Positions 19,762-62,537 of a stretch of DNA of 64,000 bases are shown here, in pieces. The notes below the pieces were generated by a model. It made no database searches. It was not told the DNA's origin and saw only the letters and a program-made list of their open reading frames with translations. How positions within the stretch are numbered: position 1 is the first letter of the stretch; every line of letters starts with the position of its first letter. The translations under genes were made by a program, and so were the position numbers. This DNA is from Nitrospira sp. (GTDB lineage: Bacteria > Nitrospirota > Nitrospiria > Nitrospirales > Nitrospiraceae): contig SWDG01000006.1 in NCBI GenBank assembly GCA_005116965.1, positions 17,553 to 81,552 of the forward strand, written 5' to 3'.

Positions 19762-19810
19762 AGTTAGCCAACCTAAGAGCGTGCGAAAGACCAGATATAG
19801 GCCGGAGAGG

Positions 19811-34246: not shown

Positions 34247-34280
34247 CCGGTATGCGACAATCAGTCAGGGGTGGTCACTG

Positions 34281-35232: not shown

Positions 35233-35239
35233 CATCTAG

Positions 35240-36202: not shown

Positions 36203-36229
36203 TATACGGAAGAATGATGCGAGCATGAG

Positions 36230-36868: not shown

Positions 36869-36992
36869 ATATTCGTGAACTGATCTTTATGCATCGATGA
36901 AACGGATTGACGCTCTCTCCTTTGGGCTGCAACTCACCCGGTTTCATTGTTGCAGCAAACGGTTGTCTCGCCAAAAAAAGACAAGCATATTC

Positions 36993-38784: not shown

Positions 38785-38793
38785 GTCCCGACA

Positions 38794-40455: not shown

Positions 40456-40503
40456 CGTCGACTAGCCTCACTGTCACCAGGAAAGGAGAGAGGATGTGCA
40501 CAC

Positions 40504-49500: not shown

Positions 49501-49896
49501 GACATCGAGTCCCTGAGGGTAGAGCAGAAGGGCTCTGGTTCCCGGTCGAGCCACGTGTGTGAGATGGCCGGCGAGCGAACGTACGGTCCCTTCGAGTTGC
49601 GCATAGGTCAGCTGATGCTCAATCTCGAGGTTGTCACGAAGCAGCGCATAGGCCAGAGCCGCTGGCTGGTGGCGGCATCGATGCTCGAAGAGATCAGGGA
49701 GGTTGTGGATCGCCCGAGGTGGAAGTTTAGACATGGATGCGAGACACAGGCTGCCCTTGAATCGCTCAGAATAGCCGCGATCACCTATCTGTCTAGCGAC
49801 GAGTACAACCGTAGAATGGTTGATGATAAATGAAAAGAATTTCTCGTTTTTCAACCGGTCCAGAAATTGACCACCGTGTAGTGTGGCAGTCCTCAT
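40504..49896 (-). CDS. non-ribosomal peptide synthetase, FAAL-ACP-C-A-T-C-A-T-TE
   Basis: 3130-aa ORF. FAAL region: LLLYPQGLDVACAFWAC..., YLQYTSGSTATPRG. Carrier Ser residues: Ser682 (FFSLGGNS, codon 47851-47853), Ser1748 (FFEQGGHS, 44653-44655), Ser2804 (FFDLGGHS, 41485-41487). C motifs: FHRLVADGW (aa 881-889) and MHHIIGDQW (aa 1940-1948). A cores: LAYIIYTSGSTGRPKG and LAYILYTSGSTGQPKG. TE: LGSCTGG (Cys2934). The likely true start is ATG 49734 (MSKLPPRAIHNLPDLFEH...). Confidence 0.95.
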   Translation of the reverse strand: MRTATLHGGQFLDRLKNEKFFSFIINHSTVVLVARQIGDRGYSERFKGSLCLASMSKLPPRAIHNLPDLFEHRCRHQPAALAYALLRDNLEIEHQLTYAQLEGTVRSLAGHLTHVARPGTRALLLYPQGLDVACAFWACVCAGLVPVPAPAPDPIRRKHALPRLRSIIEDARVSLVLTTSRSTALSSELSLANETGPITWVTTDQPYESSDSIEWPQPHDNALAYLQYTSGSTATPRGVMISQGNVLAHCRALSLAGDVSDRSRSLCWLPYFHDYGLLHGILAPFYAGIPAYLMSPVTFLRRPLRWLDAVSRFEITHSGGPNFSYEACLRAVRQQPGWQADLSTWLVASCGAEPIRPETVEQFIDTFGPRGFRRTTFAPAYGLAEATLLVTVKRADAEPSFLRVEAEALADSIIKEAPASEQGTRTLVGCGEPLEETHVRIVNPVTHAECPSGFVGEVWLAGTGIGAGYWGKPEETDATFNAALTGSGEGPYLRTGDLGFIHSGELFLTGRLKDLIIVRGRNYYPHDLEWSAQHAHPGLRRGYGAAFSIEDKTGERVALVHEIEKQVSESDLMDVVNCIRRALADEYELELHTVVLIKSGTIPRTSSGKIQRGACKAAFEAGQLAVVRENTLDSDQNVETDGVSNESPQTALETGLADIWHEVLGGPLPHRHANFFSLGGNSLLAAQVVARILDVFHVELPLSVLFECPTLFALATRIDELSTSPDDAEGGRAGIPRIPLRSTSRREGRIPLSPSQQRLWFLEQVHPGSAINHISMSVRIRGPVNPEVLERSVREIARRHEILRTRFGSERGEGFAGVSSEAIVTIGRQDFQGLAPAAQDIQVQQFLRTERNRPFDLRQGPLWRLTLLALEQDVHVLTVTFHRLVADGWSLRIFWKELALLWEAGGDVHKALLPTLTVQYADYADWQRTRLDQGLREVHQAYWIGQLSGARPPAELPVDRQRPRVRTFEGGVRSRSLPPELSTRLDHFCQRQSLTTFMVLYAVFATWLHRYTHESDIVIGSIVAGRRRRELEDVMGYCVNTVALRSEVSDGLTGHELLKQIRRIVVQAYDHQELPFEEVIEALSLQRERSLSPLFNVMIVCEDDPLSTFTVRNLEVTHLPWEPTASEFDLVLMVVNTAHGLELAFLHDSTIFDDSTVDRMLGQLEILLEEFLKKPEARLDQLSFLTAEERQNIQLTWDEPSAQASSIHTLIEAQVERTPLALAVTCGDQSISYQELNRRANRVARALQKLGVGADLPVGLCVERSVDALVGLVGILKAGGGYVPLDPSFPDHRLQLMLEDSHVSIVVTQAHLRHHIQSYGGQICDVETLSAPTGSGAEEGNLALSVSPDQLAYIIYTSGSTGRPKGVAVTHRSLVTSLHARLQYYPDPVSRFLLTFSLAFDGSVTGIFWTLLQGGELVIPPETAHRDPTELASLIEHHRISHIVWVPSLYHAVLGEALSAQLESLRISITAGESLPLELVRRHYELLPHATLYNEYGPTEATVWCSVYHTTRDEAAARVPIGKPIAHMQLYVLDASLQLMPIGVPGELYIAGECLARGYVNQPQLTQERFLANPYAPGTRLYRTGDLARYRADGNVEFLGRVDQQVKLRGYRIELGEIEYVLSNFPGVHHVAVLLRQDKRDQYRLVGYVTGESSLNERLEEVRRFLTARLPHYMVPSMILWLDTMPLSATGKVNRHALPAPNTTTGQVAPRVAPRNQVEESLAELWKSVLQVPEAGVHDHFFEQGGHSLLATQLVSRIRELFEVDVSLPALFERPTIAALAEEVARLRQKDQQASVMPPITPVPRDQPLPLSYSQQRMWLMYQLAPESTAYNMSFASRQMGRLNKSALRSTVDAICHRHEAFRTTFMMKGEGPVQTIHPFRPPHWVEVDLTQRPREERQQQAAQLVEQEANQRFDLEQGPLARFLLIEVEPEDHVLVLTMHHIIGDQWSFGVIGHEFAFFYNAFCRGDIPSAKPIPLQYADYAVWQRRCLTDDWLSTQSDYWQKKLAGLSKLSLPTDYPRPVVQTFNGSHRMVELPTSLIDRLKQFSAEHNATVFMSLLAGFQILLRRYSGQTDVAIGSPIANRTQSAVESIIGSFVNTLVLRTDLSGDPTFIELITRVRDTALEAYANQDFPFDKLVEMMHSSRDQSSAPLVQVLFNVPNAPIGEINVQGLSWVPFEVETQAAQFDLSLTIETEFSRRAYLTFNTNLFEPQTAERMLGQYKLLLQSALANPQRKLSELPTLTAPEQQQMLQDWNRTQREYPQSECFPQLFEAQVKRTPDAVALSMGPKALRYGELNVRANQLAGYLRTLGAKPGVTVGISLDRSLEMVIALLAVLKTGAAYVPLDPEFPRDRLRYMAENASLAIVLTFASLADRFDAQVCRLLCLDREESRIAQEADHNLGPIATPQDLAYILYTSGSTGQPKGVEIPHRALVNFVSSIRQEPGCTAHDVMLSVTTISFDIFGLELYVPLLAGARVEIASRAVAMDGRPLRDLCETVQPTIMQATPATWRMLVEAGWRGSSSLTVLCGGEALPPDLAASLLERCVALWNMYGPTETTIWSTVERIERTDREITIGRPIANTDVYILDQFLQPAPVGVAGELYIGGHGLARGYRGQPDLTAERFIPHPFSPEPLARLYRTGDLARYRPDGRIVHLGRLDHQVKIRGYRIELGEIETALSRHQAIRQAAVLAREDPHGAKQLVAYLVCQEGSAPSQQDLRLFLRSEIPDYMVPSLFVFLKTLPLTANNKIDRNALPSPVSSVSNDAVHVAPHDRMDIQMAALWQQVFEIDKVGIHDNFFDLGGHSLKAAQLFFLIEQVYGRHLPLSTLFQAPTIAEFASKLSHEQWTPPWQSLVAIQPSGNATPIFMVPGVGGNVLVFAQLAKLLGPNQPSYGLQARGLDGKETPFTSVPEMASHYVAQIRRFRPNGPYIVLGSCTGGLIAYEMAQQLVGQGQAVTLVMSDTWHPTTYRPHRYRLPMTFGLPLFMLWRILRTIPRLVCLPIKDWVSFLQRKYKRLMSLSQTNAANDELFVEFQVERVTRATLQAVARYDVRKYPGHILNIVASKRYVAQSVTDTRHVWPDFGGEGSKTVQVAAINSGQLLVTPHVEEVIKHLQAFLGKDTQNKPVPLANVI

Positions 49897-50096
49897 GTCT
49901 GAATGAAGAACGCTGTTTGCAAACTGACGTGCAGGTCATGCTCCGCAGTGAAGGCTGTGGCATCTTGCGACAGTAGGCGAGGAGGCACCGGGGTATTTGT
50001 CACCAGCTCAATCCCTTATTTCCCGCACCATCCTAGCAAAACAATATAACTAATTGAATAATAATGAGAAAGCTCTCTAGATTCGTTGAGAGGCAA

Positions 50097-50112
50097 TGGC
50101 ACATTGATCGCA
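50097..50112 (+). promoter_or_regulatory. candidate sigma-54 (-24/-12) promoter ahead of the cytochrome island
   Basis: TGGCAC-ATTGA-TCGCA has the GG and GC invariants at canonical spacing, with one mismatch in the -12 box. It lies ~27 nt upstream of ATG 50139. Confidence 0.4.
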
Positions 50113-50138
50113 AGGTTTGGTCCTCGAAGGGAGCACAC

Positions 50139-50528
50139 ATGCAGACTACTGGACGACTGGTGGCGTGTTGCGCAGTGTTAGCCGGTATGTCGGGGTTGGG
50201 CTTCAGCAATCTTGGGGTGAAGGAGTTTGCTGTCACGGCCAAGGGTGGTGATCCAGTTAGTGGACGCGAAATCTACGTGAACACCTGCATCCGCTGCCAC
50301 GGAATCGACGGGAAAGGCGCACTAGGAATCAAACTTGTTCCACCTCCGGCGGATCTGACCTCGCTCACTATTCAAAGTCGGCTCGATGGGACCTTATTTC
50401 GACGGATTCACGAAGGCAAACCGAATACCGCCATGGGTGCGTGGAAACATGCGCTCTCCGATGAAGAAATTTGGGATGTCTTGGCCTATGTGCGCACATT
50501 CAGGGTCGAGTCGGGTGGGCAACCATAA
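50139..50528 (+). CDS. class I c-type cytochrome (monohaem)
   Basis: Has a signal-like N-terminus MQTTGRLVACCAVLAGMSG, a CIRCHG haem site and a distal NTAMGAW Met. The ORF is open from 50064. Confidence 0.8.
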   Translation: MQTTGRLVACCAVLAGMSGLGFSNLGVKEFAVTAKGGDPVSGREIYVNTCIRCHGIDGKGALGIKLVPPPADLTSLTIQSRLDGTLFRRIHEGKPNTAMGAWKHALSDEEIWDVLAYVRTFRVESGGQP

Positions 50529-50614
50529 AGTTGAATCCAATAGGTGGGAGTTGTCTCATACGAGTGTGTCAGGAAAATACAATCAACTCCATTTTTCGAT
50601 GAGGAGGTAATGTC

Positions 50615-50833
50615 ATGACGTGCAATGTTGGAGGGATTGAGAGACCTATACGAATTGGAGCAGGGCTCGTGGCAATCATCATCGGGCTTTTTGCAGGGCT
50701 CTCGACTACGATGTCGGGGGCTGCTCTTGCTGTTGGGGTCATCCTCCTGTTCACCGGGGCAATGGGATTTTGCCCGTTGTTTACCTTACTTGGGATTAAT
50801 ACCTGCACTCCGGCATCCGGTGTGAAGAAATGA
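50615..50833 (+). CDS. DUF2892 (YgaP-like) small membrane protein
   Basis: 72 aa with NVGGIERPIRIGAGL...LFTGAMGFCPLFTLLGINTC, the family pattern. The SD is GAGGAGG. Confidence 0.75.
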   Translation: MTCNVGGIERPIRIGAGLVAIIIGLFAGLSTTMSGAALAVGVILLFTGAMGFCPLFTLLGINTCTPASGVKK

Positions 50834-50843
50834 GGCCCACTCT

Positions 50844-51698
50844 ATGAGCCGACCGGTCATTGCAAGCGTTGTGTTGGTGAGTACGCTGGTGTGGACGATC
50901 GGTTGTGTCCCACCTCCACGGGTGATGGAGAACGAGGAGGCGGCTGTTCGTCGGAGCACGGGGTCGCCGGTCGATGCGCTGTTTGTCCCGCCATCGCCTG
51001 AAACAATTCCAGGTGATTTGAGGGGCGAGCAGATTCGCCTGGGCTACAAGATGATTGTCGACACACAGGAATATGGGAAACGGTATGTGGGAAACGCACT
51101 CAACTGCACCAATTGTCATTTAGATGCGGGACTCAACCCGAATTCCGCATCCTTCGTCGGTATCGCCACGCTCTACCCACAGTATCGTCAACGGGCCGGC
51201 CGACAGATGACGCTGGCCGATCGAATCAACGAGTGTTTCGAACGCAGTATGAACGGAAAACCTCTGCCGCCCGACAGCGTGAAGCTCACGGCCATTGTCG
51301 CATACGTCACATGGTTATCACAGAATATGCCGCCCGGCGTTGAGGTCCCATGGCGAGGCATCCCACGCCTGACCTCGACCCATCAGCCGGACCCTCTCAA
51401 CGGCAAAAAGGTCTTTGAGAAAAAGTGTGTCTTCTGCCACGGCTCCGACGGGCAAGGCACCATGGCGGCACCGCCTGTGTGGGGGCCTCGTTCATACAAC
51501 ATCGGTGCAGGCATGGCGCGAATCAGCGTGGCCGCTGGATTTATCAAGGCCAACATGCCACGAGGCTGGGGCTGGACGGTGACGGATGACGAAGCCATCG
51601 ATGCGGCAGTCTATATCAACACACAGCCTCGACCGGACTTTCCCGACAAAATTCACGATTGGCCGAAGGGGGGCAAGCCGGCGGATGTGCCGTATTGA
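50844..51698 (+). CDS. TsdA-like dihaem c-type cytochrome (thiosulfate dehydrogenase family)
   Basis: Two CxxCH sites (CTNCH, CVFCH). IRLGYKMIVDT...RYVGNALNCTNCHLDAG, then ADRINECFERSMNGKPLP with a Cys at the position of the TsdA haem-1 Cys ligand, then IGAGMARISVAAGFIKANMP. The N-terminus has a possible lipobox (VWTIGC). Confidence 0.7.
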   Translation: MSRPVIASVVLVSTLVWTIGCVPPPRVMENEEAAVRRSTGSPVDALFVPPSPETIPGDLRGEQIRLGYKMIVDTQEYGKRYVGNALNCTNCHLDAGLNPNSASFVGIATLYPQYRQRAGRQMTLADRINECFERSMNGKPLPPDSVKLTAIVAYVTWLSQNMPPGVEVPWRGIPRLTSTHQPDPLNGKKVFEKKCVFCHGSDGQGTMAAPPVWGPRSYNIGAGMARISVAAGFIKANMPRGWGWTVTDDEAIDAAVYINTQPRPDFPDKIHDWPKGGKPADVPY

Positions 51699-51754
51699 GG
51701 CAACACCTATCATTCGTGGGAAGTATGGCGATCGCATCAGGAAACGATTGAGGC

Positions 51755-52315
51755 GTGATGACCAACGAGCCATGGAAGCTAAATGATACGGGGTATGCGG
51801 TGCCGGTAATGCCCTGGTGGGCCGGGGGTCTCGGAATCGGGATTGTTCTGCTCATCGCCGTGGCACTCGTGCAACCGATCGGAGTCTCGACGCAGTATGT
51901 GGTGTTAGACGGTGTGCTGTTGCATGCGCTGAGTCCAGACCTTGCCGATGACAGCCCGTATCTAAAGGAAGCCAGCAAGGGATGGACCTTGGCCACCTAC
52001 GAATTCTTCTTCGTCGTTGGGATCCCCATCGGTGCGTTTCTGGCTGCAGCAATCACGAAACGATTCAGTACCCGAGTGGTGCCTCCGCTGTGGGCCTATC
52101 GATTTGGACAGGCGCCAGGAAAACGTCTGGCGTGGTCGTTTATCGGGGGTTTTCTTCTGCTGTTCGGAGCTCGCTTTGGAGGGGGATGCACGTCCGGCCA
52201 TATGATTAGCGGGGTCTCGCAGCTGGCCGTGAGTTCATTCATTTTTTCCGCCGCGTTGTTTGCCAGTGCAATTGTTACGGCCCGCTGGCTGTACCCTGAG
52301 CAGGTGAAACAGTGA
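51755..52315 (+). CDS. YeeE/YedE family (sulfur-transport, PF04143-like) membrane protein
   Basis: Polytopic, with FGGGCTSGHMISG. Its stop overlaps the next start (GTGA). Confidence 0.8.
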   Translation: MMTNEPWKLNDTGYAVPVMPWWAGGLGIGIVLLIAVALVQPIGVSTQYVVLDGVLLHALSPDLADDSPYLKEASKGWTLATYEFFFVVGIPIGAFLAAAITKRFSTRVVPPLWAYRFGQAPGKRLAWSFIGGFLLLFGARFGGGCTSGHMISGVSQLAVSSFIFSAALFASAIVTARWLYPEQVKQ

Positions 52316-52839
52316 ACTTGCTTCTAGGGTTCCTTCTTGGAGCGGCCTTTGGCGCGATCCTCCAGCTCTCCGGAGCGTCGAGCTATACAAAGATCCTCGA
52401 AACCTTGCGGCTCAAAGACTTGACGATCATGAAGGTCATCATGACAGCCATCGGTGTCGGGTTGATCGGGGTTCATGGATTGGATGTGTTGGGTGTCGCT
52501 CATCTGAAGGTCAAGGATCTATATCTCCCAGGGATCGTCATCGCTGGCCTGATCTTTGGAATGGGATTTGCCCTCACGGGTTACTGTCCTGGGACAGCGC
52601 TTGCTGCCGCAGCAGAGGGAAAACTTGATGCGTGGGTGACTATTGTCGGAGGTCTGTTCGGCGCGTTGACGTTTGCTTTCCTGTTTCCCAATCTCGAATC
52701 GTTTTTGGCCTCCTTCGGAGGATTCGGGCCCGTGACGATTCATGGATCGTTCGGGGTCAACGGCTTGCTCATTGCATTGCCGCTCGGTGTGCTGTGTCTT
52801 TGGGGCGCGGCGAAACTTCCTGGATCAGGAACGACATGA
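52312..52839 (+). CDS. YeeE/YedE family membrane protein, second half-size paralogue
   Basis: Polytopic, with FALTGYCPGTA. Its stop overlaps the next start (ATGA). Confidence 0.8.
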   Translation: MNLLLGFLLGAAFGAILQLSGASSYTKILETLRLKDLTIMKVIMTAIGVGLIGVHGLDVLGVAHLKVKDLYLPGIVIAGLIFGMGFALTGYCPGTALAAAAEGKLDAWVTIVGGLFGALTFAFLFPNLESFLASFGGFGPVTIHGSFGVNGLLIALPLGVLCLWGAAKLPGSGTT

Positions 52840-53252
52840 AACTCACGGCCACTTTTCATAGCGGGACTCGCTACGACATTGTGAGCGGCCAACATCGCGT
52901 CATCACCGACCAGTCGGTGGAAGACGGAGGGCAGGATGCCGGAATGGGTCCGGTTGAACTGTTCGTTGGTTCGGTCGCAAGTTGTGTGGCGTACTTTGTC
53001 GGGCAATTTTGTGGGCGCCACGGTATCTCCCGAGAGGGCTTGACGGTCGAGGCGGAATGGACGATGGCCGAAGTTCCTCATCGAGTTGGTCGTATCGACC
53101 TCGGAATCCACCTCCCCCACCGCATCAGCGCAGAGCAAAAAGAGCGATTACTTAAGGTGGCACATGGCTGCACCGTGCATCAATCCCTCGCGGTGCCTGC
53201 CGGTGTGGCGATCGAACTCAATCCTCATCCTCGTGCGGAGAAACCCTTGTGA
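52836..53252 (+). CDS. OsmC-like protein
   Basis: GMGPVELFVGSVASCVAYF and KVAHGCTVHQSL (two conserved Cys). It is translationally coupled to the YeeE pair. The ORF is open from 52632. Confidence 0.75.
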   Translation: MKLTATFHSGTRYDIVSGQHRVITDQSVEDGGQDAGMGPVELFVGSVASCVAYFVGQFCGRHGISREGLTVEAEWTMAEVPHRVGRIDLGIHLPHRISAEQKERLLKVAHGCTVHQSLAVPAGVAIELNPHPRAEKPL

Positions 53253-53263
53253 AAGGAGCAGCG

Positions 53264-54673
53264 ATGTTGAATGTGAGAGTCCGGGTGTTCATTGGAAGCG
53301 CTGCGCTTGTCTTGTTGGGATTCATGTCGTCCCCGCAATTGTCGTTTGGGAGCGATCACACGCGCGCCAAGGAGCTTATCCAACAGACCTGTGTGCAATG
53401 TCACCGGCTGGAAGGTCAGCCGGATTCGCGCTTCAAGCTTCACGCTCCTGACTTGATGTGGGCCGGTAGTAAGTACCAACGGTCGTGGCTCATTCGTTGG
53501 CTGACCGGTGAGGAGGCTCCGCTCTATGCGAAGGGATATATGTGGGACCTGACCACCGTTCCGTCCAAACACCCGATGGTCACAGCGTCGGAGGCGAACG
53601 CACTTGCGGATTACTTTGCCGAGCATAACAAAGATCCGCGCGTCACTATTGGCGCGTTCGATCTCTCGAAAGTCACCAAGTTCGACGTGAAGTTTGGTGC
53701 GGCGGCTTTTAAAGCCCACGCCTGTCTTGGCTGCCACACGATCGAGGAAAACGGCAAGCTCATCGGCGGCCCGCAGAGTGCCGCGTTGCAGAATGCCGGC
53801 CAGCGGTACAACTCGGACTGGCTCTTCCGATTCGGGCAGAATCCGCAAGACTTCACGCCGCACAGCGGCGAGTTTTTGGCCGATGCGACGGAGCCACAAC
53901 TCCGCGCGGTGATCGGGTTTCTTATGGTGCAGGGCGTGAAGGACTTCACGTATTACGAGCCCTGGACGAGCCGTGAATTCGAGATGGCCAGCGTGGATCG
54001 AGGGAAGGTGGTTTATAAGGAGTATTGTTCGCAGTGTCACGGCGCGACGGGCAAAGGCGACGGACCGGCAGCTTCCGGCCTGGAACCCAAACCGGCGATA
54101 CATGCCAACATGCCATTCGAAAAGCTCCCGATCGAATACCTCTACAACGTCATCAATCATGGCGGACCGGCAGTAGGCAAATCGCCGAACATGCCTTATT
54201 GGAATTTGACGATCGGTCAACAGGGCGTGGCGGATGTGATCGCCTATTTGAAAGTGACATTCAAGGGAGTGCCGGATATCGCCGCTGCGCAGAGTGCAAG
54301 TCAGGGCGGTGCCTGTGTGCAACCCCGTAAGACAACCAAGGCTCCGGAAGAATTTCTCGGTAAAGCGAACCCGGTTCCCTCCTCTTCGGGTGCCGTCCGG
54401 GCGGGAAAAGAATTGTTTCTGAAGACCGCGCAGCCGGTCGCCTGCGTCATGTGCCATGGTGAGCAAGGAGATGGCAAAGGATTGATGGGTGCGGCCTTGG
54501 TGCCGCCGCCACGAAATTTCACCTGTGGCGCGATGATGCGGGAGATTCCGGATGGTCAGCTGTTTTGGATCATCAAGAATGGGTCTCCGGGGACTGGAAT
54601 GATGCCGTTTGCCACGTTGCCGGATGAGCAGGGCTGGCAACTGATCCACTACATTAGGAGTTTGGCCAAGTAA
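53264..54673 (+). CDS. tetrahaem c-type cytochrome (four class-I-like domains)
   Basis: Has a signal peptide (VFIGSAALVLLGF) and four CxxCH sites: CVQCH, CLGCH, CSQCH, CVMCH. AAAGGAG lies upstream of ATG 53264. Confidence 0.85.
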   Translation: MLNVRVRVFIGSAALVLLGFMSSPQLSFGSDHTRAKELIQQTCVQCHRLEGQPDSRFKLHAPDLMWAGSKYQRSWLIRWLTGEEAPLYAKGYMWDLTTVPSKHPMVTASEANALADYFAEHNKDPRVTIGAFDLSKVTKFDVKFGAAAFKAHACLGCHTIEENGKLIGGPQSAALQNAGQRYNSDWLFRFGQNPQDFTPHSGEFLADATEPQLRAVIGFLMVQGVKDFTYYEPWTSREFEMASVDRGKVVYKEYCSQCHGATGKGDGPAASGLEPKPAIHANMPFEKLPIEYLYNVINHGGPAVGKSPNMPYWNLTIGQQGVADVIAYLKVTFKGVPDIAAAQSASQGGACVQPRKTTKAPEEFLGKANPVPSSSGAVRAGKELFLKTAQPVACVMCHGEQGDGKGLMGAALVPPPRNFTCGAMMREIPDGQLFWIIKNGSPGTGMMPFATLPDEQGWQLIHYIRSLAK

Positions 54674-54717
54674 GAGTGAGGAGGGTGCATGTGTACATAT
54701 CAACAAGGAGGCAGATT

Positions 54718-55212
54718 ATGAGAGTGAGTCGATATGGAGCGGTGAAGTCAGTCGTTCTGGTTGCAGTCGCTGCGTGGGCGGTATTGGCCGGTGGCCATGA
54801 TATCGCCTATGCACAGGCTGCGGGGATGGGAGCGCCGCCCTCCAAGGTGGAGATCATCATCAAGGACCGTCAGCACGGCTATGAGACCGCCGGGTTCACG
54901 ATGCCGTCGCAAGACACGATCATCGTCGTCCGCAACCAGGATTCTGTCACGCACGGGTTTGCGTCAAAGTTGTTCAAAGACATTCCCGTGAAGGTGGAGG
55001 GAGGAACTGAGGTACGAGGAAAACAGTTCAAGGCCTTTCATGTCGATGCGGGAAAGACAATGACACTCCGTTTTGCCACAGTGCCCTCGAACTTCGATCC
55101 AGCGACCGGTGGAGCTGAAAGTGTGCGGCATGCCCTGTGGTGTGACATCCATCCTGAAGTCAAAGGAGAACTGTTTGTCATTGAAACCCGAGGGGATGTC
55201 GGAGGGGGCTGA
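54718..55212 (+). CDS. cupredoxin-like protein, axial Met replaced
   Basis: Has a signal peptide. VRNQDSVTHGF provides His and WCDIHPEVKGELFV follows an amicyanin-like C-x2-H-x2-(M) pattern with Val in the Met position. Confidence 0.55.
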   Translation: MRVSRYGAVKSVVLVAVAAWAVLAGGHDIAYAQAAGMGAPPSKVEIIIKDRQHGYETAGFTMPSQDTIIVVRNQDSVTHGFASKLFKDIPVKVEGGTEVRGKQFKAFHVDAGKTMTLRFATVPSNFDPATGGAESVRHALWCDIHPEVKGELFVIETRGDVGGG

Positions 55213-55412
55213 GTCGCATCCCTGTTCCGTTCTGAAACGCGCTCACTGCGGTGTGGAAGCGGGCATCTCTCCTGTGAGAGTGCAAGAGTTCCAGTCCTGG
55301 CCGGCAACGTTCACACCGAAGCTGAGCCAGGACTGGTGGAGCTGTTTCTGTGATAGGTAGCGCTGAGGTGAGCGGCTGTGCCGGTTCTGCAGTGGATGAA
55401 GGAGACCCCCAC

Positions 55413-55880
55413 ATGAACTGGGTCATGAGAGGCTCCGCTCATCTCGCGGGCGTATGTCTTGGATTGGCAGTCAGCACAGGTTCGCTTGTCATGCCGCTCA
55501 CCGGATGGGGCAAGGAGATTTCCTTTGTGGCACGTGATGTCGAAGATCAGCAAGCGGTGTGGCTTCCCAGTGAAATCATCATTCACCGCAGTGCGGATTT
55601 CAGGGAGCCGTTGATTTTTCGGTTTGATAATCCAACTGTACGGACCCATGTGTTCGAAGCCCCGGGCTTGTTTGAGTCGGTAGAGGAAAGCGGTGTTCGG
55701 ATCACCAGGCCGGTGCGGATTACCATTGCGCCAGAGGGGACCGAGCAGACCGTGATCGACAGAGACCGGATGGCGAGCGATGCGATCACTGCCGAAGGAG
55801 AGACGGTGACCTATCAATTCTACTGCCCCCTCCATCAAGCCGATGCAGACATAGGTGGGAAAATCGTGGTGCGGCAATAA
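55413..55880 (+). CDS. cupredoxin-like protein 2
   Basis: Has a signal peptide. VRTHVFEAPG and YCPLHQADADIGGKIVV fit an H...C-x2-H pattern without an obvious Met. GAAGGAG lies upstream of ATG 55413. Confidence 0.5.
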   Translation: MNWVMRGSAHLAGVCLGLAVSTGSLVMPLTGWGKEISFVARDVEDQQAVWLPSEIIIHRSADFREPLIFRFDNPTVRTHVFEAPGLFESVEESGVRITRPVRITIAPEGTEQTVIDRDRMASDAITAEGETVTYQFYCPLHQADADIGGKIVVRQ

Positions 55881-55883
55881 CAC

Positions 55884-56006
55884 CAACGTGAAGCGTATTG
55901 GCCAACGGTTTCATGTGCCATGTTTCCGCACAACTTGAAACGTTGAACGTGAAACTTGGAACTAAGCAACTCAGGATCGCGATACGAGATACGAACGACG
56001 AGTGAC
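55884..56006. repeat. intergenic heptamer-repeat element, copy C
   Basis: AACGTGAAGCGTATTGG comes first. Heptamers GCACAAC TTGAAAC GTTGAAC GTGAAAC TTGGAAC occupy 55928-55962, followed by TCAGGAT CGCGATA CGAGATA CGAACGA CGAG. It is colinear with copy B. Confidence 0.75.
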
Positions 56007-56019
56007 GGAGGAGAACACA

Positions 56020-56379
56020 ATGGCCACGTTCATTATTTCAGGTAGTCGAGGAACGGATGACCCCACAATGGCAACGTTGCCGTTCATGGCGGCGAAGACG
56101 GCGAAGGAGCAGGGGCATGATGTTGTGCTCTGGTTGTGGAATGAAGCCGTCACCTTAGGTCGGAAAGGTGTCGCTGATCATATCACCGGTGTAAACCTGA
56201 CTCCGTTGAAAGAACTGCTCGCTGCCGTGCAGGCAGCGGGTGTGCCGATCTGGGTCTGTGGGGCCTGTGCGGTGGCCAGACAGGTTGGCGGAGGGGATTT
56301 AGTAGCTGGGGCCTCTATCAAAGGTATGCCGGATTACATCAAAGCCGTGGCCGAGCGAGACCGGAACGTCATGTTCTGA
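56020..56379 (+). CDS. DsrE/DsrF/TusD-family protein
   Basis: 120 aa with ATFIISGSRGTDDP...LPFMAAKTA...VLWLWNEAV...IWVCGACA. GGAGGAG lies upstream of ATG 56020. Confidence 0.7.
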   Translation: MATFIISGSRGTDDPTMATLPFMAAKTAKEQGHDVVLWLWNEAVTLGRKGVADHITGVNLTPLKELLAAVQAAGVPIWVCGACAVARQVGGGDLVAGASIKGMPDYIKAVAERDRNVMF

Positions 56380-56406
56380 TCGAAGGCAAAATGAAGGAGG
56401 CTTCGA

Positions 56407-57444
56407 ATGGCAGCTGACGGCGAATCGGTCGGGAAGTCGAAGGAACGGAAAGAGCGGAGAGATCCGGCAAATGTCGACGAAGATATGAATGGGCTGGAGG
56501 CGATTCCCACGAGGGTGCCGCGGGAGGGGGACGGGTACCAGGTCCCGCGCAGCGCCTTGATCGCCCAGGGGTTCGGACGTATTGGCGAGCCGGGCTACGC
56601 CTTGACTGCGGATGATCTCCGAAGGGTCAACACAAGGAAAGGATTTCTGAAGCTCCTCGCAAACAAAGCCGTCGATATCGAGGAAGTACGCAAGACTCTG
56701 CTGTACGAACAGGAGTTGCGGCAACTACAAGTTGAACTTGTCAGGCTGCAACGGTGGGTGCAGAGCAGTGGGGAGCGTATCGCCATTTTGGTCGAAGGAC
56801 GGGATGCAGCCGGGAAGGGCGGTACGATTCGCCGGTTCACCGAGCATCTGAATCCTCGCGCCATGCGCGTCGTGGCTCTGCCAAAGCCGACCGATGCAGA
56901 ACGGGGCCAGTGGTATTTCCAGCGCTATATTCACCAGCTCCCCAATAGGGGTGAAATCGTCTTCTTCGACCGGAGTTGGTACAACCGTGCCGTCGTCGAG
57001 CCGGTGATGGGATTCTGCACTAAGAAGGAGCATCAACGGTTCCTGCAACAGGTCCCAGAATTCGAGCACATGCTCTATGAAGACGGTGTGACCATCATCA
57101 AGTTCTGGTTCTCCATCTCCAAGGACGAACAAGCTAGGCGATTCGAAGCGAGGCGGCAGAATCCGCTCAAGCAGTGGAAGCTCAGCCCGGTCGATGAGAA
57201 GGCGCAGGAGCTGTGGGACGCGTATACCCGCTGCAAAGAGGAAATGTTCAGCAAAACGCACTCGACCTTTAGCCCCTGGATCATCGTGCAGGCGAACGAC
57301 AAACAGGCGGCGCGACTGGAAAGCTTGCGTTACGTCCTGAACCTTCTTCCCTACAAAGGAAAGGACGAAGCGCAGATCAGGCTGACGCCCGATCCGAATG
57401 TGATCGTTCGATTCCACCGCAAGATGGTGGAACTGGATCTGTAA
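56407..57444 (+). CDS. ppk2: polyphosphate kinase 2 family protein
   Basis: ILVEGRDAAGKGGTIRRF (Walker A), IVFFDRSWYNR, WKLSPVD, SPWIIVQANDK. Confidence 0.9.
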   Translation: MAADGESVGKSKERKERRDPANVDEDMNGLEAIPTRVPREGDGYQVPRSALIAQGFGRIGEPGYALTADDLRRVNTRKGFLKLLANKAVDIEEVRKTLLYEQELRQLQVELVRLQRWVQSSGERIAILVEGRDAAGKGGTIRRFTEHLNPRAMRVVALPKPTDAERGQWYFQRYIHQLPNRGEIVFFDRSWYNRAVVEPVMGFCTKKEHQRFLQQVPEFEHMLYEDGVTIIKFWFSISKDEQARRFEARRQNPLKQWKLSPVDEKAQELWDAYTRCKEEMFSKTHSTFSPWIIVQANDKQAARLESLRYVLNLLPYKGKDEAQIRLTPDPNVIVRFHRKMVELDL

Positions 57445-57486
57445 TGTCGGAAGGTAGTTGGCACCGCCGACGAAAGGAACAAGAGG

Positions 57487-58023
57487 ATGAAGACGAGTCT
57501 GTCGATGTTCATAGTCGCTGCGCTGTGCTGTGCGGTCCCTGCCGGTGCGGCAGAGCGCCACATGATGCAGCCGATCGTACCTGCCGGTAAGTTGGCTGAG
57601 GCGAGGGGGCTCAAGAACCCCTTGTCGAATTCGCCCGAAGTCATTGAGCAGGGAAAATCTGTGTACAACGGCAAGGGCGGCTGCGTCACCTGTCATGGCA
57701 TAGACGGAGACGGCAAAGGGCCGGCGTCTGCGACTATGAATCCCTCACCTCGCAACTTCCAGCACCACGGTTTCTGGCGGCATCGCACCGAGGGAGAAGT
57801 CTTCTGGGCCATCAAATATGGGTCACCAGGCACAGCCATGATCGCATTTGGTTCGGTATTGTCCGACAAAGAAATCTGGGCCCTCATCCAATATGAGCGC
57901 ACCTTCGCCGGCAGCCATGGGCCTGGCATGATGGGGCGTGGAGGGGGGATGGGACCTGGCGGTGGTATGGGTGGGAGAGAAGGTATGGGACATCGCGGGC
58001 GCAAAGGCGGAAAAGATGAGTGA
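57487..58023 (+). CDS. class I c-type cytochrome with Gly/Met-rich C-terminal tail
   Basis: Has a signal peptide, a CVTCHG site and a PGTAMIAF distal Met. The tail is GPGMMGRGGGMGPGGGMGGREGMGHRGRKGG. Confidence 0.8.
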   Translation: MKTSLSMFIVAALCCAVPAGAAERHMMQPIVPAGKLAEARGLKNPLSNSPEVIEQGKSVYNGKGGCVTCHGIDGDGKGPASATMNPSPRNFQHHGFWRHRTEGEVFWAIKYGSPGTAMIAFGSVLSDKEIWALIQYERTFAGSHGPGMMGRGGGMGPGGGMGGREGMGHRGRKGGKDE

Positions 58024-58091
58024 GAGTCTTGAGGCTGAGAACCGCTCTATAGGAATAACACCAACATTTATCAATCCTGGAGGTCTTGGTC

Positions 58092-58688
58092 ATGACGAAG
58101 TTGTGGAAGCGCTGGATGGTTGCAGTTGGAGGAGCCGTAGTGGTCATTGCGATGACAGTGTTCCCTGTCTTTGCCGATGAAGGCCATGGGAAGATGGGGC
58201 ATGGTGGCCACGATCAGGATGATCAGGGCGATCATAGTGGGGACTATCTGAAGCATCTGCTGAAACATGTCAAAGAGATCGGGTTGACGCCGGAACAAAT
58301 CACCAAGCTTAAATCCATGCAGCTGGACTTTAAACGAACCGAGGCCAGGTTGGAAGCCGACGCGAAGGTGGCAAAACTCGAACTGCATGCGCTGTTGGAA
58401 GATGAGCAGGCTGACCTCATTGCGATACAGGCGAAAGTCGATCAACTGAAAAAAGCGGAATCGGCCTGTCTGTTCACAGCCATCAAAAGTACGCGTAACG
58501 CCATGGCCATGTTGACTCCCGACCAACGGGAAAAGGACCGTGCCGTTCATGAACACATGAAGAGTGGAACCCAGCACGGAGGTGGAATGGGAGGGATGAT
58601 GGGGGGTATGGGAGGTGGAATGATGGGAGGCGGCGGGCATGGACAGAGCAGTGGTGCTGCCAGTGGCGGGCAGCAACACCAGCATTGA
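58092..58688 (+). CDS. periplasmic Spy/CpxP/ZraP-family (LTxxQ) protein with His-rich N-terminal and Gly/Met/His-rich C-terminal tracts
   Basis: Has a signal peptide, two LTxxQ motifs (LTPEQITKL, LTPDQREK), an N-terminal tract HGKMGHGGHDQDDQGDH and a C-terminal tract GGGMGGMMGGMGGGMMGGGGHGQ. Confidence 0.7.
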   Translation: MTKLWKRWMVAVGGAVVVIAMTVFPVFADEGHGKMGHGGHDQDDQGDHSGDYLKHLLKHVKEIGLTPEQITKLKSMQLDFKRTEARLEADAKVAKLELHALLEDEQADLIAIQAKVDQLKKAESACLFTAIKSTRNAMAMLTPDQREKDRAVHEHMKSGTQHGGGMGGMMGGMGGGMMGGGGHGQSSGAASGGQQHQH

Positions 58689-58731
58689 ACATCGAGCGTC
58701 GTCGTCCGTTCTTGAAAGAAGAGGAGCGCGC

Positions 58732-59091
58732 ATGTCCTTACGTATTGTGGTTAGCCTCGTCGTAGTGGCGTTGACTGCTTCGTGGGCTCTGGCTCAGAGC
58801 CATTATGGAAACACGAAGAACGGAGAGAGAATCTTTCAACAACACTGTGCTGGATGCCATGGAACCTCGGGTGATGGGCTTGGGCCTGAGATCAAGGAAT
58901 TAATTGTGCCACCGGCGAATTTTCGAGCGGTGAAATCACGCACGAAGACCGATATGGAACTGTATCTTGCGGTCAAGCAGGGAGTCCTCTTCAGTCCAAT
59001 GCACAGCTGGGCGGATCGGCTGTCAAACCAGGAGATGTGGGACGTCTTGAGCTACATCCGTACGTTGGCTCCGTTCAACCCACTCGGCTAG
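58732..59091 (+). CDS. class I c-type cytochrome (monohaem)
   Basis: Has a signal peptide (VVALTASWALA), a CAGCHG site and a SPMHSW distal Met. GAGGAG lies upstream of ATG 58732. Confidence 0.8.
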   Translation: MSLRIVVSLVVVALTASWALAQSHYGNTKNGERIFQQHCAGCHGTSGDGLGPEIKELIVPPANFRAVKSRTKTDMELYLAVKQGVLFSPMHSWADRLSNQEMWDVLSYIRTLAPFNPLG

Positions 59092-59116
59092 CTCCGCTTA
59101 ACTACGACTCATGGAT

Positions 59117-59139
59117 CCCTGTCGCATTCTGCGACAGGG
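59117..59139 (+). terminator. hairpin after the last cytochrome gene (weak terminator candidate)
   Basis: CCCTGTCGCA-TTC-TGCGACAGGG is a perfect 10-bp stem. The tail ATATTTCAT is only weakly T-rich. Confidence 0.4.
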
Positions 59140-59247
59140 ATATTTCATGGTGAGACCTAGAACGCCACAGGCGAGAGGTCTCCCATTTGAATCGTTCAGC
59201 AAGCTCTCGTCATATCACAACAATTCCCGCCACACTTGTCACTTTCG

Positions 59248-59263
59248 TGGCACGGACTTGGCT
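59248..59263 (+). promoter_or_regulatory. candidate sigma-54 (-24/-12) promoter ahead of ytxH-like gene
   Basis: TGGCAC-GGACT-TGGCT has GG and GC at canonical spacing, with one mismatch in the -12 box. It lies ~45 nt upstream of ATG 59306. Confidence 0.4.
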
Positions 59264-59305
59264 CTCTCAACCAACAGCACGTTCCTAATCTACGGAGGAT
59301 TCGTC

Positions 59306-59617
59306 ATGTCAAATCAGGACGCCAAGTGTTCACCAGAAACCGTTGTCCTCGCATTTCTCGGCGGAGCGATCGGGGGGATGATTGCCGGTATCCTTCTCGC
59401 TCCCAGGTCGGGCGAGGAAACGCGTCGTGAATTAAAGAGCCAGGCTCGAAGGACGGAAGAAGAGCTCATCGAGAAAGCCAAGGAGGCGCGCGCCGCTCTT
59501 GATGAGGTCATTGAGCGTGGCAAGCACTTCGTGGCGGAGAAACGCGCGGATGTTGAAGCTGCGGTCACGGCAGGGAAGGAAGCCATGAAAGAGAAGATGG
59601 ACAAATGCTGTAACTGA
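59306..59617 (+). CDS. YtxH-domain protein
   Basis: LAFLGGAIGGMIAGILLAPRSGEETRRELK is followed by a charged helical region. GGAGGA lies upstream of ATG 59306. Confidence 0.75.
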   Translation: MSNQDAKCSPETVVLAFLGGAIGGMIAGILLAPRSGEETRRELKSQARRTEEELIEKAKEARAALDEVIERGKHFVAEKRADVEAAVTAGKEAMKEKMDKCCN

Positions 59618-59646
59618 CGCGGTCATCGTCAGGAAGGAGTAGCCGG

Positions 59647-60003
59647 ATGCTACGAGTCGACAATATTCGAAAGAAGCTGATTTCCCAACGGCGTGAGCTG
59701 TTTCGGGAAGTGGCCAAGACGGAAGAGGATCTGCGCTGGCTCCAAAGCGATATCGAAAGCGAAGTGGAGGAGCGGGGGCAGGAGGAGGCTATGGTTCGGC
59801 TGCTCGATCGTCTGGATGGGCGAGGGAAAGCCGAGATCGAGGCGATCGACCGGGCGCTCTTCAAGCTGGGTTCTGAGCAGTACGGTCGATGTGAGCAATG
59901 CGGGAAGGCCATCCCCCAATCCAGGCTAGAGGCGGTCCCCGCGGCTGCTATGTGCATGGCTTGCGAGCAGGCAGAGGAGAACCAGGCGGCGCTGAGGAAA
60001 TAG
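59647..60003 (+). CDS. DksA/TraR-family C4 zinc-finger protein
   Basis: A coiled-coil N-terminus is followed by CEQCGKAI...MCMAC. Confidence 0.8.
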   Translation: MLRVDNIRKKLISQRRELFREVAKTEEDLRWLQSDIESEVEERGQEEAMVRLLDRLDGRGKAEIEAIDRALFKLGSEQYGRCEQCGKAIPQSRLEAVPAAAMCMACEQAEENQAALRK

Positions 60004-60094
60004 GCGAGTAAGCCGTCAGCGATCATATCAGGAGCGCGAGTCGCTGCCTGTTGGAAGCCGGTCAGCGGATATCTTTTGTGAAAGGAGATCGCCG

Positions 60095-60487
60095 ATGGAA
60101 ATCAAAGTGCTGTTGTGTAACTGCAAGGGGCTCTGCGATTCATTCAAAGACTCCGATATGAATAAACTCCCTTTCGAGGTCGAATCAGATCTGGATGTCA
60201 AGTATACGGTTCTCAGTCCGCAGTTGTGCGGGCAGGGCGGGAATGCCATTTTGGAAGAGGCGATGAAGACGTCTAAGCCGGACGATTACTTGCTCGTGGG
60301 CGCCTGCGCTCCGAAGGCCCAGGAGAAGCTCTTCAAAAAGCTCATTCGTGCGACTGGCTTCAATGAGAAGCATTTTGTGCCGGTCGATATCCGGGGCACC
60401 GATAACACGGGAATTCTGGGTCGTCTGCGCGAATCTGTCGAAGGCGTTCTTAAGCAGGCGGAAGCCGGACCAAGTCCTGCAGCATAA
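60095..60487 (+). CDS. Cys-rich hypothetical protein
   Basis: 130 aa. The N-terminus is IKVLLCNCKGLCDSF, with later LCGQGG and LLVGACAP. Good SD (AAAGGAG). Family not recognised. Confidence 0.5.
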   Translation: MEIKVLLCNCKGLCDSFKDSDMNKLPFEVESDLDVKYTVLSPQLCGQGGNAILEEAMKTSKPDDYLLVGACAPKAQEKLFKKLIRATGFNEKHFVPVDIRGTDNTGILGRLRESVEGVLKQAEAGPSPAA

Positions 60488-60523
60488 GCAGGAAGATGAT
60501 TGGCATGAGAAGGTGAGCGCAAT

Positions 60524-61282
60524 TTGGACACGAGCAATATTCTCCAGCTTGATGAGGTGAGCGTCGAGGTCGGCGGACGGTCGATCCTCCACGATGTCAG
60601 CTTGCGGATCAGACCGGGAGAGACGCATGTGCTCTTCGGTCCGAACGGATCGGGCAAATCCTCGTTGCTGATGGCCATCATGGGGCTGAGTCGGTACCGC
60701 GTCACCAAGGGCCGGATCTTGTTTCAGGGCCAGGACATCACCCGCCTTCCTGTTGATGAGCGCGCGCGTCTGGGGATCGGCCTCATGCAGCAGCGCCCTC
60801 CGAGTGTGCGCGGTATTCCGTTGGGACAGCTTGCCGAAGTCTCGGCACAGGGAAAGGACGGCAAACGGGTTGCGGAACTGGCGGATCAGCTTGGCTGCTC
60901 CAGTTTGCTCGCGCGCGATGTGAACGTGGGGTTTTCAGGCGGCGAAATCAAGAAGGCCGAACTGCTCCAGCTCATGGCTCAGCAGCCAGCGTTGGCCCTG
61001 GTCGATGAACCAGACGCCGGCGTTGATCTGGACAGTATTGCAGTGGTGGGGCAAGCGCTCGCTTGCCTCGTGAAGCAGCCGAGTGCCGAGGCCGTGGCGC
61101 CAGCGGCACTCATCATTACGCATACCGGACACATCCTCAATTATCTGCGGGCGGATGTGGGGCATGTGCTCTATGGCGGCACGCTCGTCGGAGAAGGGGA
61201 AGGACTCCAGCTGCTGGAAGAAATTCGTAAACACGGGTACGGGAAATGTCCGATCTGTCGCTCACACATTCCGGTCCAATAA
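60524..61282 (+). CDS. sufC: Fe-S cluster assembly ATPase SufC
   Basis: FGPNGSGKSSLL, FSGGEIKKAELLQL, ALVDEPDAGVDLD. TTG start. Confidence 0.9.
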   Translation: MDTSNILQLDEVSVEVGGRSILHDVSLRIRPGETHVLFGPNGSGKSSLLMAIMGLSRYRVTKGRILFQGQDITRLPVDERARLGIGLMQQRPPSVRGIPLGQLAEVSAQGKDGKRVAELADQLGCSSLLARDVNVGFSGGEIKKAELLQLMAQQPALALVDEPDAGVDLDSIAVVGQALACLVKQPSAEAVAPAALIITHTGHILNYLRADVGHVLYGGTLVGEGEGLQLLEEIRKHGYGKCPICRSHIPVQ

Positions 61283-62523: not shown

Positions 62524-62537
62524 AAGAGCAGTAGAGA

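Follow-up and report, generated by a model that had tools for sequence, protein, structure and literature searches.

The window analyzed here, a 64-kb stretch of Nitrospira DNA, carries an island of 14 open reading frames (ORFs; g01 to g14) at positions 50139 to 59091 (from 50064 with an alternative start of g01), in which c-type cytochromes stand together with a homologue of the thiosulfate dehydrogenase TsdA and with members of sulfur-linked and stress-type protein families. A sequence-only reading of this DNA, made without database searches, had described 14 co-directional plus-strand genes with short gaps or overlapping stop/start codons and had proposed that they form a single sulfur pathway. 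All 14 ORFs were confirmed, and all lie on the plus strand.

50139..50528, +, g01: monohaem class-I cytochrome c with a signal peptide (Pfam Cytochrom_C/Cytochrome_CBB3)
50615..50833, +, g02: DUF2892/YgaP-like transmembrane protein of 72 amino acids, a two-helix membrane protein (PF11127, E 3.4e-19)
50844..51698, +, g03: TsdA-type dihaem cytochrome, probable lipoprotein (Cys21) (phmmer; Pfam SoxA-TsdA_cyt-c and a second cytochrome c domain)
51755..52315, +, g04: half-size YeeE/YedE protein, C-terminal half (PmpA-like) (Pfam Sulf_transp 176-309)
52312..52839, +, g05: half-size YeeE/YedE protein, N-terminal half (PmpB-like) (Pfam Sulf_transp 14-149 and DUF6691)
52836..53252, +, g06: cytoplasmic thiol protein of the OsmC/Ohr family (Pfam OsmC, E 4.8e-12)
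53249..54673, +, g07: periplasmic tetrahaem cytochrome c with four class-I domains (four Pfam cytochrome c domains)
54718..55212, +, g08: exported cupredoxin-like protein, cupA (weak Cupredoxin_1 matches, alignment)
55413..55880, +, g09: exported protein with a probable cupredoxin fold, cupB (AlphaFold and Foldseek, alignment)
56020..56379, +, g10: cytoplasmic DsrE/YchN-like protein (Pfam DsrE, E 5e-19)
56407..57444, +, g11: polyphosphate kinase 2, PPK2 (Pfam PPK2 PF03976, E 3.6e-96)
57487..58023, +, g12: monohaem cytochrome c with a Gly/Met-rich C-terminal tail (Pfam cytochrome c)
58092..58688, +, g13: periplasmic protein of the Spy/CpxP/ZraP family with a Gly/Met-rich tail (Pfam Metal_resist PF13801)
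58732..59091, +, g14: monohaem cytochrome c (Pfam cytochrome c)

With the most plausible starts, the intergenic spacings from g01 to g14 are 86, 10, 56, -4, -4, -4, 44, 200, 139, 27, 42, 68, and 43 nucleotides, which bears out the compact arrangement that had been described. The three values of -4 are four-nucleotide overlaps (g04/g05, g05/g06, and g06/g07), and g04 to g07 are therefore linked by overlapping stop and start codons. The start of g01 is either the ATG at 50139, which stands behind GGGAG, or 50064; position 50097, from which the sequence-only reading had counted the island, is out of frame for this gene. The start of g14 is probably 58732. We counted nine CxxCH motifs across the island (1+2+4+1+1), one more than the eight haem sites given earlier. 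N-terminal hydrophobic signals are present in every haem protein, in both cupredoxin-like proteins, and in the Spy-like protein; OsmC, DsrE, and PPK2 are without an export signal.

Family membership is directly established by these searches: 12 of the 14 family labels pass the Pfam gathering score, and the two that fall below it belong to the cupredoxin-like pair, for which other evidence, given below, supports the label. None of the island proteins reaches a curated cutoff in NCBIfam, and therefore no equivalog names can be assigned. Promoter and terminator counts in a scan of 49700-60600 were at or below shuffle expectation, so we give no operon boundaries, and the Rfam and tRNA scans detected no feature inside the island. 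Composition is uniform across the window. A horizontal acquisition of the island was dropped as an explanation because its guanine-plus-cytosine (GC) content and skew are the same as those of its surroundings. Two long antisense ORFs on the minus strand, 53225-54706 (493 amino acids, opposite the tetrahaem gene) and 56725-57696 (323 amino acids, opposite PPK2), were dismissed: strong homologues exist for the plus-strand genes, and the antisense frames most likely arise as artefacts of coding DNA rich in GC.

Conserved core and optional genes

A genome scan with an alignment of the tetrahaem cytochrome (g07) identified 237 loci, of which the best 80, all from Nitrospira, were taken with 10-kb flanks and searched with the proteins of the window. 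Genes upstream of the tetrahaem gene were counted in the 54 loci with at least 6 kb on that side, and genes downstream in the 46 loci with at least 8 kb. Upstream, TsdA is found in 44 of the 54 loci, OsmC directly adjacent to the tetrahaem gene in 42, g01 upstream of TsdA in 28, DUF2892 in 23, the YeeE pair in 14 to 15 (about 27%), and a divergent nonribosomal peptide synthetase (NRPS) gene in 16. Downstream, DsrE occurs in 33 of the 46 loci, g12 in 32, PPK2 in 25 (54%), the cupredoxin-like pair in 22 to 23 (50%), Spy in 18 (39%), YtxH in 17, g14 in 9 (20%), DksA in 4, and SufCD in none. The conserved core thus consists of a cytochrome c, TsdA, OsmC, the tetrahaem cytochrome, DsrE, and another cytochrome c, and its co-conservation across Nitrospira relatives answers, within this genus, the synteny check that had been suggested for the island. 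That this core is kept while its flanks change argues for selection on the arrangement.

If all 14 genes constituted one integrated pathway of thiosulfate or persulfide oxidation or detoxification, extending over periplasm and cytoplasm, TsdA would be its entry, the tetrahaem cytochrome a TsdB-like acceptor, the YeeE pair and DUF2892 the means of import, and DsrE and OsmC the sulfur carriers, with the cupredoxins and the other cytochromes providing a route to the oxidase. The genes are indeed co-directional and tightly spaced with three overlaps, every sulfur-linked family label holds, the candidate catalytic Cys residues are all invariant, and close relatives, among them that of locus L004, have the full set as well. 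However, the full gene set of the window is present in only 2 of 38 fully covered loci, the variable genes are each found in 20 to 54% of loci, and natural variants without the YeeE pair, the cupredoxins, PPK2, or Spy keep the core, which already refutes this explanation in part. In addition, the island harbors no TusA/YeeD, rhodanese, persulfide dioxygenase, Sqr, or Sox gene, and PPK2 and Spy have no established role in sulfur metabolism. Of the pathway proposed from the sequence, the conserved core and TsdA stand, and its extension to all 14 genes seems to us distinctly unlikely.

A further point against a single pathway is the existence of the tetrahaem gene and the cupredoxin genes as a module of their own, apart from the sulfur genes. 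Thirteen loci carry only tetrahaem-cupA-cupB; on one complete chromosome the three genes stand among housekeeping genes, with ispH on one side and an O-methyltransferase gene with a two-component system on the other, and no sulfur gene is nearby. Genomes that bear the trio also hold an island with its own tetrahaem gene and without cupredoxin genes (locus pairs L057/L060, L061/L068, and L040/L077). In a neighbour-joining tree the stand-alone tetrahaem copies form one clade, nested among the island copies, including those of the same genomes. Retention of the tetrahaem gene in both daughter loci after duplication is what would be expected if TsdA and the cupredoxin-like proteins each depend on it. 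The cupredoxin-like genes, wherever seen, follow a tetrahaem gene, with cupA next to it.

A different neighbourhood was found in a sister lineage, represented by short contigs from a metagenome scan with one distant full-length tetrahaem relative. Here the tetrahaem protein is 53 to 58% identical to that of the window, and in six loci (L084 2354-3460; L090 4100-5302; L085, L088, L093, and L094) its gene adjoins one for a di-haem cytochrome c peroxidase (CCP_MauG). Also nearby are genes for Spy-like and Tll0287-like proteins, small cytochromes, a PAS histidine kinase, and a 164-amino-acid protein ending in CxxCH (cytochrome c'-like). No TsdA, OsmC, or DsrE gene is present on these tetrahaem contigs, one of which (L091) carries tandem tetrahaem copies. 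Within Nitrospira, a peroxidase gene lies near the tetrahaem gene in one locus only (L025). The adjacency to CCP_MauG suggests that proteins of the tetrahaem family act as partners to haem enzymes of the periplasm, and the common denominator of all loci is a tetrahaem cytochrome predicted to serve periplasmic redox enzymes.

Synteny and modularity are thus observed directly. Our preferred interpretation, which we hold with moderate confidence, is that the genus Nitrospira conserves the island as a set of modules for periplasmic electron transfer, and that these do not add up to one linear pathway.

The cultured species Nitrospira inopinata (locus L081) has an island with a cytochrome c, DUF2892, TsdA, the tetrahaem cytochrome, cupA, DsrE, PPK2, further cytochromes, and Spy-like and Tll0287-like proteins. 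A DUF1264 protein is also encoded there, and downstream of the island, after YtxH, lies a gene (18335-20002) for a 555-amino-acid pyridine-nucleotide disulfide oxidoreductase with a rhodanese domain (CoA-disulfide/persulfide reductase type), a sulfur-linked protein that is absent from the window. Among other local variants, L010 has an extra DsrE-like gene (44% identity) between the tetrahaem gene and cupA, and L015 has a tandem repeat of cupB-DsrE.

Proteins of the cluster

The dihaem protein g03 is a genuine homologue of TsdA, with ligation and catalysis predicted. In phmmer searches it matched the solved TsdA of Allochromatium vinosum (4wqc, 4wq7, and 4v2k) over residues 42-272 with E values of 3.4e-58 to 2.4e-57, and the TsdA part of the fusion protein 5lo9 with an E value of 1.4e-40; the Pfam SoxA-TsdA_cyt-c score is 54 bits against a cutoff of 27, and Cytochrome_CBB3 is also matched. 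Two CxxCH motifs are present, at residues 88 and 195. Cys131 lies in RINECFERSMNG, and this motif aligns with the segment RIGDCFERSLNG of A. vinosum TsdA that bears the Cys ligand of the catalytic haem 1, and FIKANMP of g03 aligns with FIKHKMP of the A. vinosum enzyme at haem 2. The Met at haem 2 is strictly conserved in TsdA and follows a Lys in the A. vinosum type or an Asn in the Campylobacter jejuni type. The haem-2 site of g03, Lys235-x-Asn237-Met238, is of the C. jejuni type and matches Lys252, Asn254, and Met255 of the TsdA of that organism. In C. jejuni TsdA the haem-2 ligand is the Met, and the adjacent Asn and Lys modulate how far the enzyme favors oxidation of thiosulfate over reduction of tetrathionate (PMC5146829). 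Both CxxCH motifs, Cys131, Lys235, Asn237, and Met238 are invariant among 58 to 59 Nitrospira orthologues. The link to thiosulfate that the sequence had suggested is therefore borne out for g03, all TsdA ligand residues being present and invariant; reassignment of the TsdA-like and YeeE-like genes to unrelated families had been named as evidence that would count against the proposed pathway, and profile and PDB searches keep both in the families first given. g03 is probably lipid anchored at the periplasmic face. Assignment as SoxA was rejected, with a TIGR04484 score of 42 bits against a cutoff of 110 and no Sox partner among the Pfam assignments of the island.

In the tetrahaem protein g07, four CxxCH motifs and a pair of Cys residues, Cys356 and Cys426, are invariant in 92 sequences, including those of the sister lineage. 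The two Cys residues lie outside the haem motifs; they may be joined in a disulfide that ties the linker to domain 4, and a role of either as a haem ligand seems unlikely. Among 1.84 billion representatives, the four-domain architecture was found in one further full-length cluster only (58% identity), and it is largely confined to Nitrospira and one sister lineage. The closest relatives of the tetrahaem protein and of both cupredoxin-like proteins are exclusively in Nitrospira. A TsdB-like acceptor function had been suggested for g07. As a role this is plausible, but specific similarity to TsdB was not detected in a PDB sequence search.

The conservation of g07 raises the possibility that it is a housekeeping carrier of the nitrite-oxidizing chain, for example between nitrite oxidoreductase (NXR) and the terminal oxidase, and that TsdA, OsmC, DsrE, and the other genes are incidental neighbours by inheritance in a young genus, functionally unconnected with it. 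Across the best 80 loci the tetrahaem protein is 77 to 95% identical and far more conserved than TsdA (58 to 98%) or g01; it is almost confined to Nitrospira and occurs in loci without any other island gene. On the other hand, the order of the core persists while the flanks are reshuffled, OsmC is coupled to the tetrahaem gene by a 4-nucleotide overlap, the island copy has been kept beside TsdA and DsrE after duplication, and no nxr or oxidase gene lies near the tetrahaem gene in the loci examined. We consider a purely housekeeping function improbable.

The two monohaem cytochromes of the core are also well conserved in their haem sites. The single CxxCH of g01 is invariant in 42 orthologues, and this protein, with one haem where TsdB has two, is a candidate direct redox partner of TsdA. 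The CxxCH of g12 is invariant in 57 orthologues, and many loci carry two or three copies of a g12-type cytochrome.

Both members of the cupredoxin-like pair contain an invariant His...Cys-x-x-His motif (His79, Cys142, and His145 in g08; His80, Cys139, and His142 in g09), and orthologue alignments show no Met in the C-terminal loop of either protein; the axial Met of a type-1 copper site was not found. Met-less type-1 copper sites occur elsewhere. The lack of the Met in the loop agrees with the description of the pair as two Met-less cupredoxins in the sequence-only reading. Weak Cupredoxin_1 matches, below the Pfam threshold, were obtained for 11 of 18 g08 orthologues (best E 0.0033), and orthologues are named cupredoxin or EfeO-type cupredoxin in NCBI and UniRef. 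The AlphaFold model of g08 is poor (predicted local distance difference test [pLDDT] 46), and its Foldseek matches, including AcoP, are not significant. For g09 (pLDDT 72.6), Foldseek matched the cupredoxin domains of two-domain laccase and McoA with E values of about 1e-5 and TM scores of about 0.5. In the PDB, neither sequence nor profile searches with g08 and g09 gave matches above chance level. The cupredoxin label is reasonable for both proteins, with copper binding putative. Both families were found only in Nitrospira, and a protein 100% identical to g08 is present in a Nitrospira metagenome-assembled genome. A paralogous origin of g08 and g09 found no support: BLASTP and hhalign comparisons were not significant, and the two share just a short N-x-x-x-T-H-x-F motif.

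Five proteins of the membrane and cytoplasm belong to sulfur-linked families. g02 has two hydrophobic segments and conserved Cys. g04 covers positions 176-309 of the Sulf_transp profile and has a single invariant Cys145; g05 covers positions 14-149, also matches DUF6691, and has an invariant Cys92. PmpA and PmpB correspond to the C-terminal and N-terminal halves of YeeE, respectively, each with one essential-position Cys (PMC11582611). The OsmC protein g06 scores 46.6 bits against a cutoff of 27.5, with Cys50, Cys59, and Cys112 invariant in 58 orthologues; its closest solved relatives are uncharacterised OsmC-like proteins. The DsrE protein g10 scores 69 bits against a cutoff of 22.7, with a Cys-x-x-Cys pair (Cys86/Cys89) that is invariant in 64 orthologues. 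It is the most conserved gene of the island (82 to 96% identity), and its closest solved relative is the uncharacterised E. coli YchN, a weak match (E 1e-3). Conservation of these residues, as of the haem ligands, is a direct observation from the alignments.

The remaining genes are of stress type. The PPK2 match of g11 extends over profile positions 7-227 of 229, and g13 scores 36 bits for Metal_resist against a cutoff of 29.2, with two LTxxQ motifs (LTPEQ and LTPDQ) and an N-terminal hydrophobic signal. g12 and g13 end in Gly/Met-rich tails at 57900-58023 and 58600-58688 (GMGPGGGMGG... and GGGMGGMMGGMGGGMMGG..., respectively); these tails could be sites of Cu(I) binding or sacrificial sinks for oxidants.

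These properties bear on another explanation, in which the island provides periplasmic or envelope defence against redox stress and respiratory-chain electrons reach reductive detoxifying enzymes by way of the tetrahaem protein. TsdA would then be mainly a tetrathionate reductase or would regenerate thiosulfate as an oxidant scavenger, OsmC would be a hydroperoxide reductase, the Gly/Met tails would be oxidant or copper sinks, and Spy, PPK2, and the downstream YtxH and DksA/TraR would have stress functions. The sister-lineage tetrahaem gene beside a di-haem cytochrome c peroxidase gene and a Spy-like gene, the membership of g06 in the OsmC/Ohr family with conserved Cys residues, the Metal_resist protein with its LTxxQ motifs, the presence of PPK2, the frequency of YtxH after the island, and a haem-2 site of the type seen in tetrathionate-reducing C. 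jejuni are all consistent with it. The sulfur-linked family labels of the island hold, but for OsmC, PPK2, and Spy a part in the stress response is no less fitting than one in sulfur trafficking. Nevertheless, the island of the window has no peroxidase, and of the Nitrospira loci only L025 has one nearby; reduction of tetrathionate by electrons from nitrite is thermodynamically impossible; no regulator typical of stress regulons is encoded in the island; and TsdA is more consistently conserved than the stress-type genes. Redox-stress defence as the function of the whole cluster is unlikely, though worth keeping in mind.

Proposed electron flow, genomic surroundings, and significance

In the modular electron-transfer cluster that we favor, the Cys-ligated haem 1 of TsdA would be the site where two thiosulfate and one tetrathionate are interconverted, and the Met-ligated haem 2 would pass the two electrons to the monohaem g01 and/or the tetrahaem g07. 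We infer this pairing of partners from gene order. The tetrahaem protein would be a shared hub between periplasmic redox enzymes and the high-potential cytochrome c pool of the nitrite-oxidizing chain, and would also connect to the cupredoxin-like pair where this is present. The PmpAB-type pair and DUF2892 would probably move thiosulfate or a related sulfur anion through the membrane to the cytoplasmic Cys proteins, of the OsmC-like and DsrE/YchN-like type, whose roles, like the transported substrate, we infer from their families. PmpAB with DUF2892, the two tetrahaem-dependent cupredoxin-like proteins, and the stress-type genes (PPK2 and Spy-like) would be add-ons that vary by species. Thiosulfate would be a small supplementary electron donor or a compound for detoxification.

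The nitrite/nitrate couple has a much higher potential than thiosulfate/tetrathionate, and oxidation of thiosulfate would therefore be the downhill direction in an aerobic nitrite oxidizer, whose cytochrome pool would be poised close to the former couple. For the thiosulfate/tetrathionate couple, a midpoint potential (Em) of +198 mV has been given (PMC9562282).

Several points weigh against this interpretation. The haem-2 site of g03 is of the Campylobacter type, which is tied to a bias toward tetrathionate reduction (PMC5146829), and the direction of electron flow may therefore be reversed. The synteny data cover one genus and one sister lineage, so that shared ancestry contributes to the conserved order. 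A PDB sequence search with g07 (E <= 1e-3) did not return the TsdB-TsdA fusion 5lo9. Among the Pfam assignments of the window there is neither a TusA/YeeD-type partner of YeeE nor a rhodanese. The tightest neighbours of the tetrahaem gene encode OsmC and DsrE, cytoplasmic proteins that this interpretation does not readily tie to a cytochrome of the periplasm. Finally, our literature searches found no report of thiosulfate use by Nitrospira.

A more specific possibility is that the tetrahaem protein and the Met-less pair form a Nitrospira-specific hub that plugs a thiosulfate donor (TsdA) and, in the sister lineage, a peroxide sink (cytochrome c peroxidase) into the nitrite-oxidizing chain, and that could conceivably supply the carrier still lacking between periplasmic NXR and the unusual terminal oxidase; this we regard as a long shot. 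Were such a hub to operate, the most widespread nitrite oxidizers on Earth and comammox bacteria would be able to draw energy from thiosulfate.

Beyond the island, the window contains the following features.

33125-36868: Mla lipid-transport operon (MlaE, MlaF, MlaD, and an auxiliary lipoprotein)
36897-37442, +: second DsrE-family ORF, 181 amino acids (Pfam DsrE, E 3.2e-6), directly after the Mla operon
37999-38784, -: phosphopantetheinyl transferase
38794-40455, -: ABC exporter
40504-49896, -: NRPS of 3130 amino acids
59111-59617, +: YtxH protein
59647-60003, +: DksA/TraR zinc-finger protein
60095-60487, +: Cys-rich protein of 130 amino acids

The minus-strand genes at 37999-49896 make up a small divergent NRPS cluster; the NRPS gene stands beside the island in the 16 loci counted above, and in N. 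inopinata the Mla operon is closer, with no NRPS between. In that species an OsmC gene follows the Mla genes (2135-2569 of locus L081), at a position similar to that of the second DsrE-family ORF. Downstream of the island, plus-strand genes extend over 59111-62801. The Cys-rich protein (beginning MEIKVLLCNCKGLC) has no Pfam match and is followed by SufC-like, SufD-like, and FeS_assembly_P genes; YtxH follows the island in 17 of 46 loci, and the DksA/TraR, Cys-rich protein, and Suf genes are not conserved there. A tRNA-Lys (anticodon TTT) at 14340-14415 on the plus strand is the sole Rfam/ARAGORN feature in the window.

In soils, fresh water, and treatment plants, Nitrospira are dominant both as nitrite oxidizers and as complete nitrifiers, and the alternative substrates known for them, hydrogen and formate, are few. 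A TsdA with intact ligands and dedicated cytochromes across the genus predicts turnover of thiosulfate or tetrathionate, which lies outside current models of Nitrospira physiology and, if true, would couple the sulfur cycle and nitrification where oxic and anoxic zones meet. The three Nitrospira-restricted families, namely, the tetrahaem cytochrome and the two cupredoxin-like proteins, are candidates for a poorly understood periplasmic electron route. As the cultured N. inopinata carries the core cluster, the prediction is directly testable.

Comparison with known systems

The combination of genes had been put forward as one not known from a described pathway, and our literature searches agree, as they found no description of this cluster, of the tetrahaem family, or of the two cupredoxin-like families. 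A study of sulfur genes in Nitrospirota mentions only SoxCD-like genes and Sqr for the Nitrospirales. In "Candidatus Nitrotoga," an unrelated nitrite oxidizer, a tsdA region with cytochromes and sulfur transporters has been reported.

With the TsdA and TsdBA systems of A. vinosum, C. jejuni, and Marichromatium purpuratum, g03 shares a full-length alignment, both haem motifs, the Cys ligand, and the haem-2 Met, and with C. jejuni TsdA also the Lys-x-Asn-Met motif. It differs from these enzymes in that it is probably lipid anchored. In contrast to TsdBA systems, the island has no tsdB; the acceptors encoded beside g03 would be a monohaem cytochrome and a four-domain tetrahaem protein unrelated to TsdB. 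Known tsd loci lack the OsmC and DsrE neighbours that are conserved beside g03, and the host here oxidizes nitrite or is a comammox organism; our literature searches gave no report that such a host uses thiosulfate.

g04 and g05 resemble PmpA and PmpB in their split into two adjacent halves with one conserved Cys each. They are remote from TsuA (YeeE), with about 43 to 44 bits against an NCBIfam equivalog cutoff of 400. The YeeE-YeeD (TsuA-TsuB) system also differs in that the island has no YeeD/TusA partner gene and in that the g04/g05 pair is present in just about a quarter of Nitrospira islands. g06 shares Pfam membership and invariant Cys residues with the OsmC/Ohr thiol peroxidases. g10 has the same kind of likeness to the DsrE/TusD/YchN family, although, in contrast to DsrEFH and TusBCD, it is not accompanied by DsrF/DsrH or a TusA partner.

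The cupredoxin-like pair recalls the type-1 copper proteins rusticyanin and AcoP and their cytochromes in Acidithiobacillus ferrooxidans in that a small exported protein with a predicted beta-sandwich and His...Cys-x-x-His is encoded directly after a multihaem cytochrome c. The pair differs from type-1 copper proteins in the ligand loop, which is without the axial Met, and has no significant sequence match to cupredoxins in Pfam or the PDB; the likeness of g08 to AcoP is not significant and comes from a poor model. The tetrahaem cytochrome, in turn, is comparable to the cytochrome c donor of a di-haem cytochrome c peroxidase, in that its sister-lineage orthologue is encoded beside CCP_MauG, whereas the island of the window has no peroxidase and TsdA takes the neighbouring position. 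TsdA, PmpAB, DsrE, OsmC, PPK2, and Spy are known families, and what appears to be new is a lineage-specific set of putative partners for TsdA in an unexpected host.

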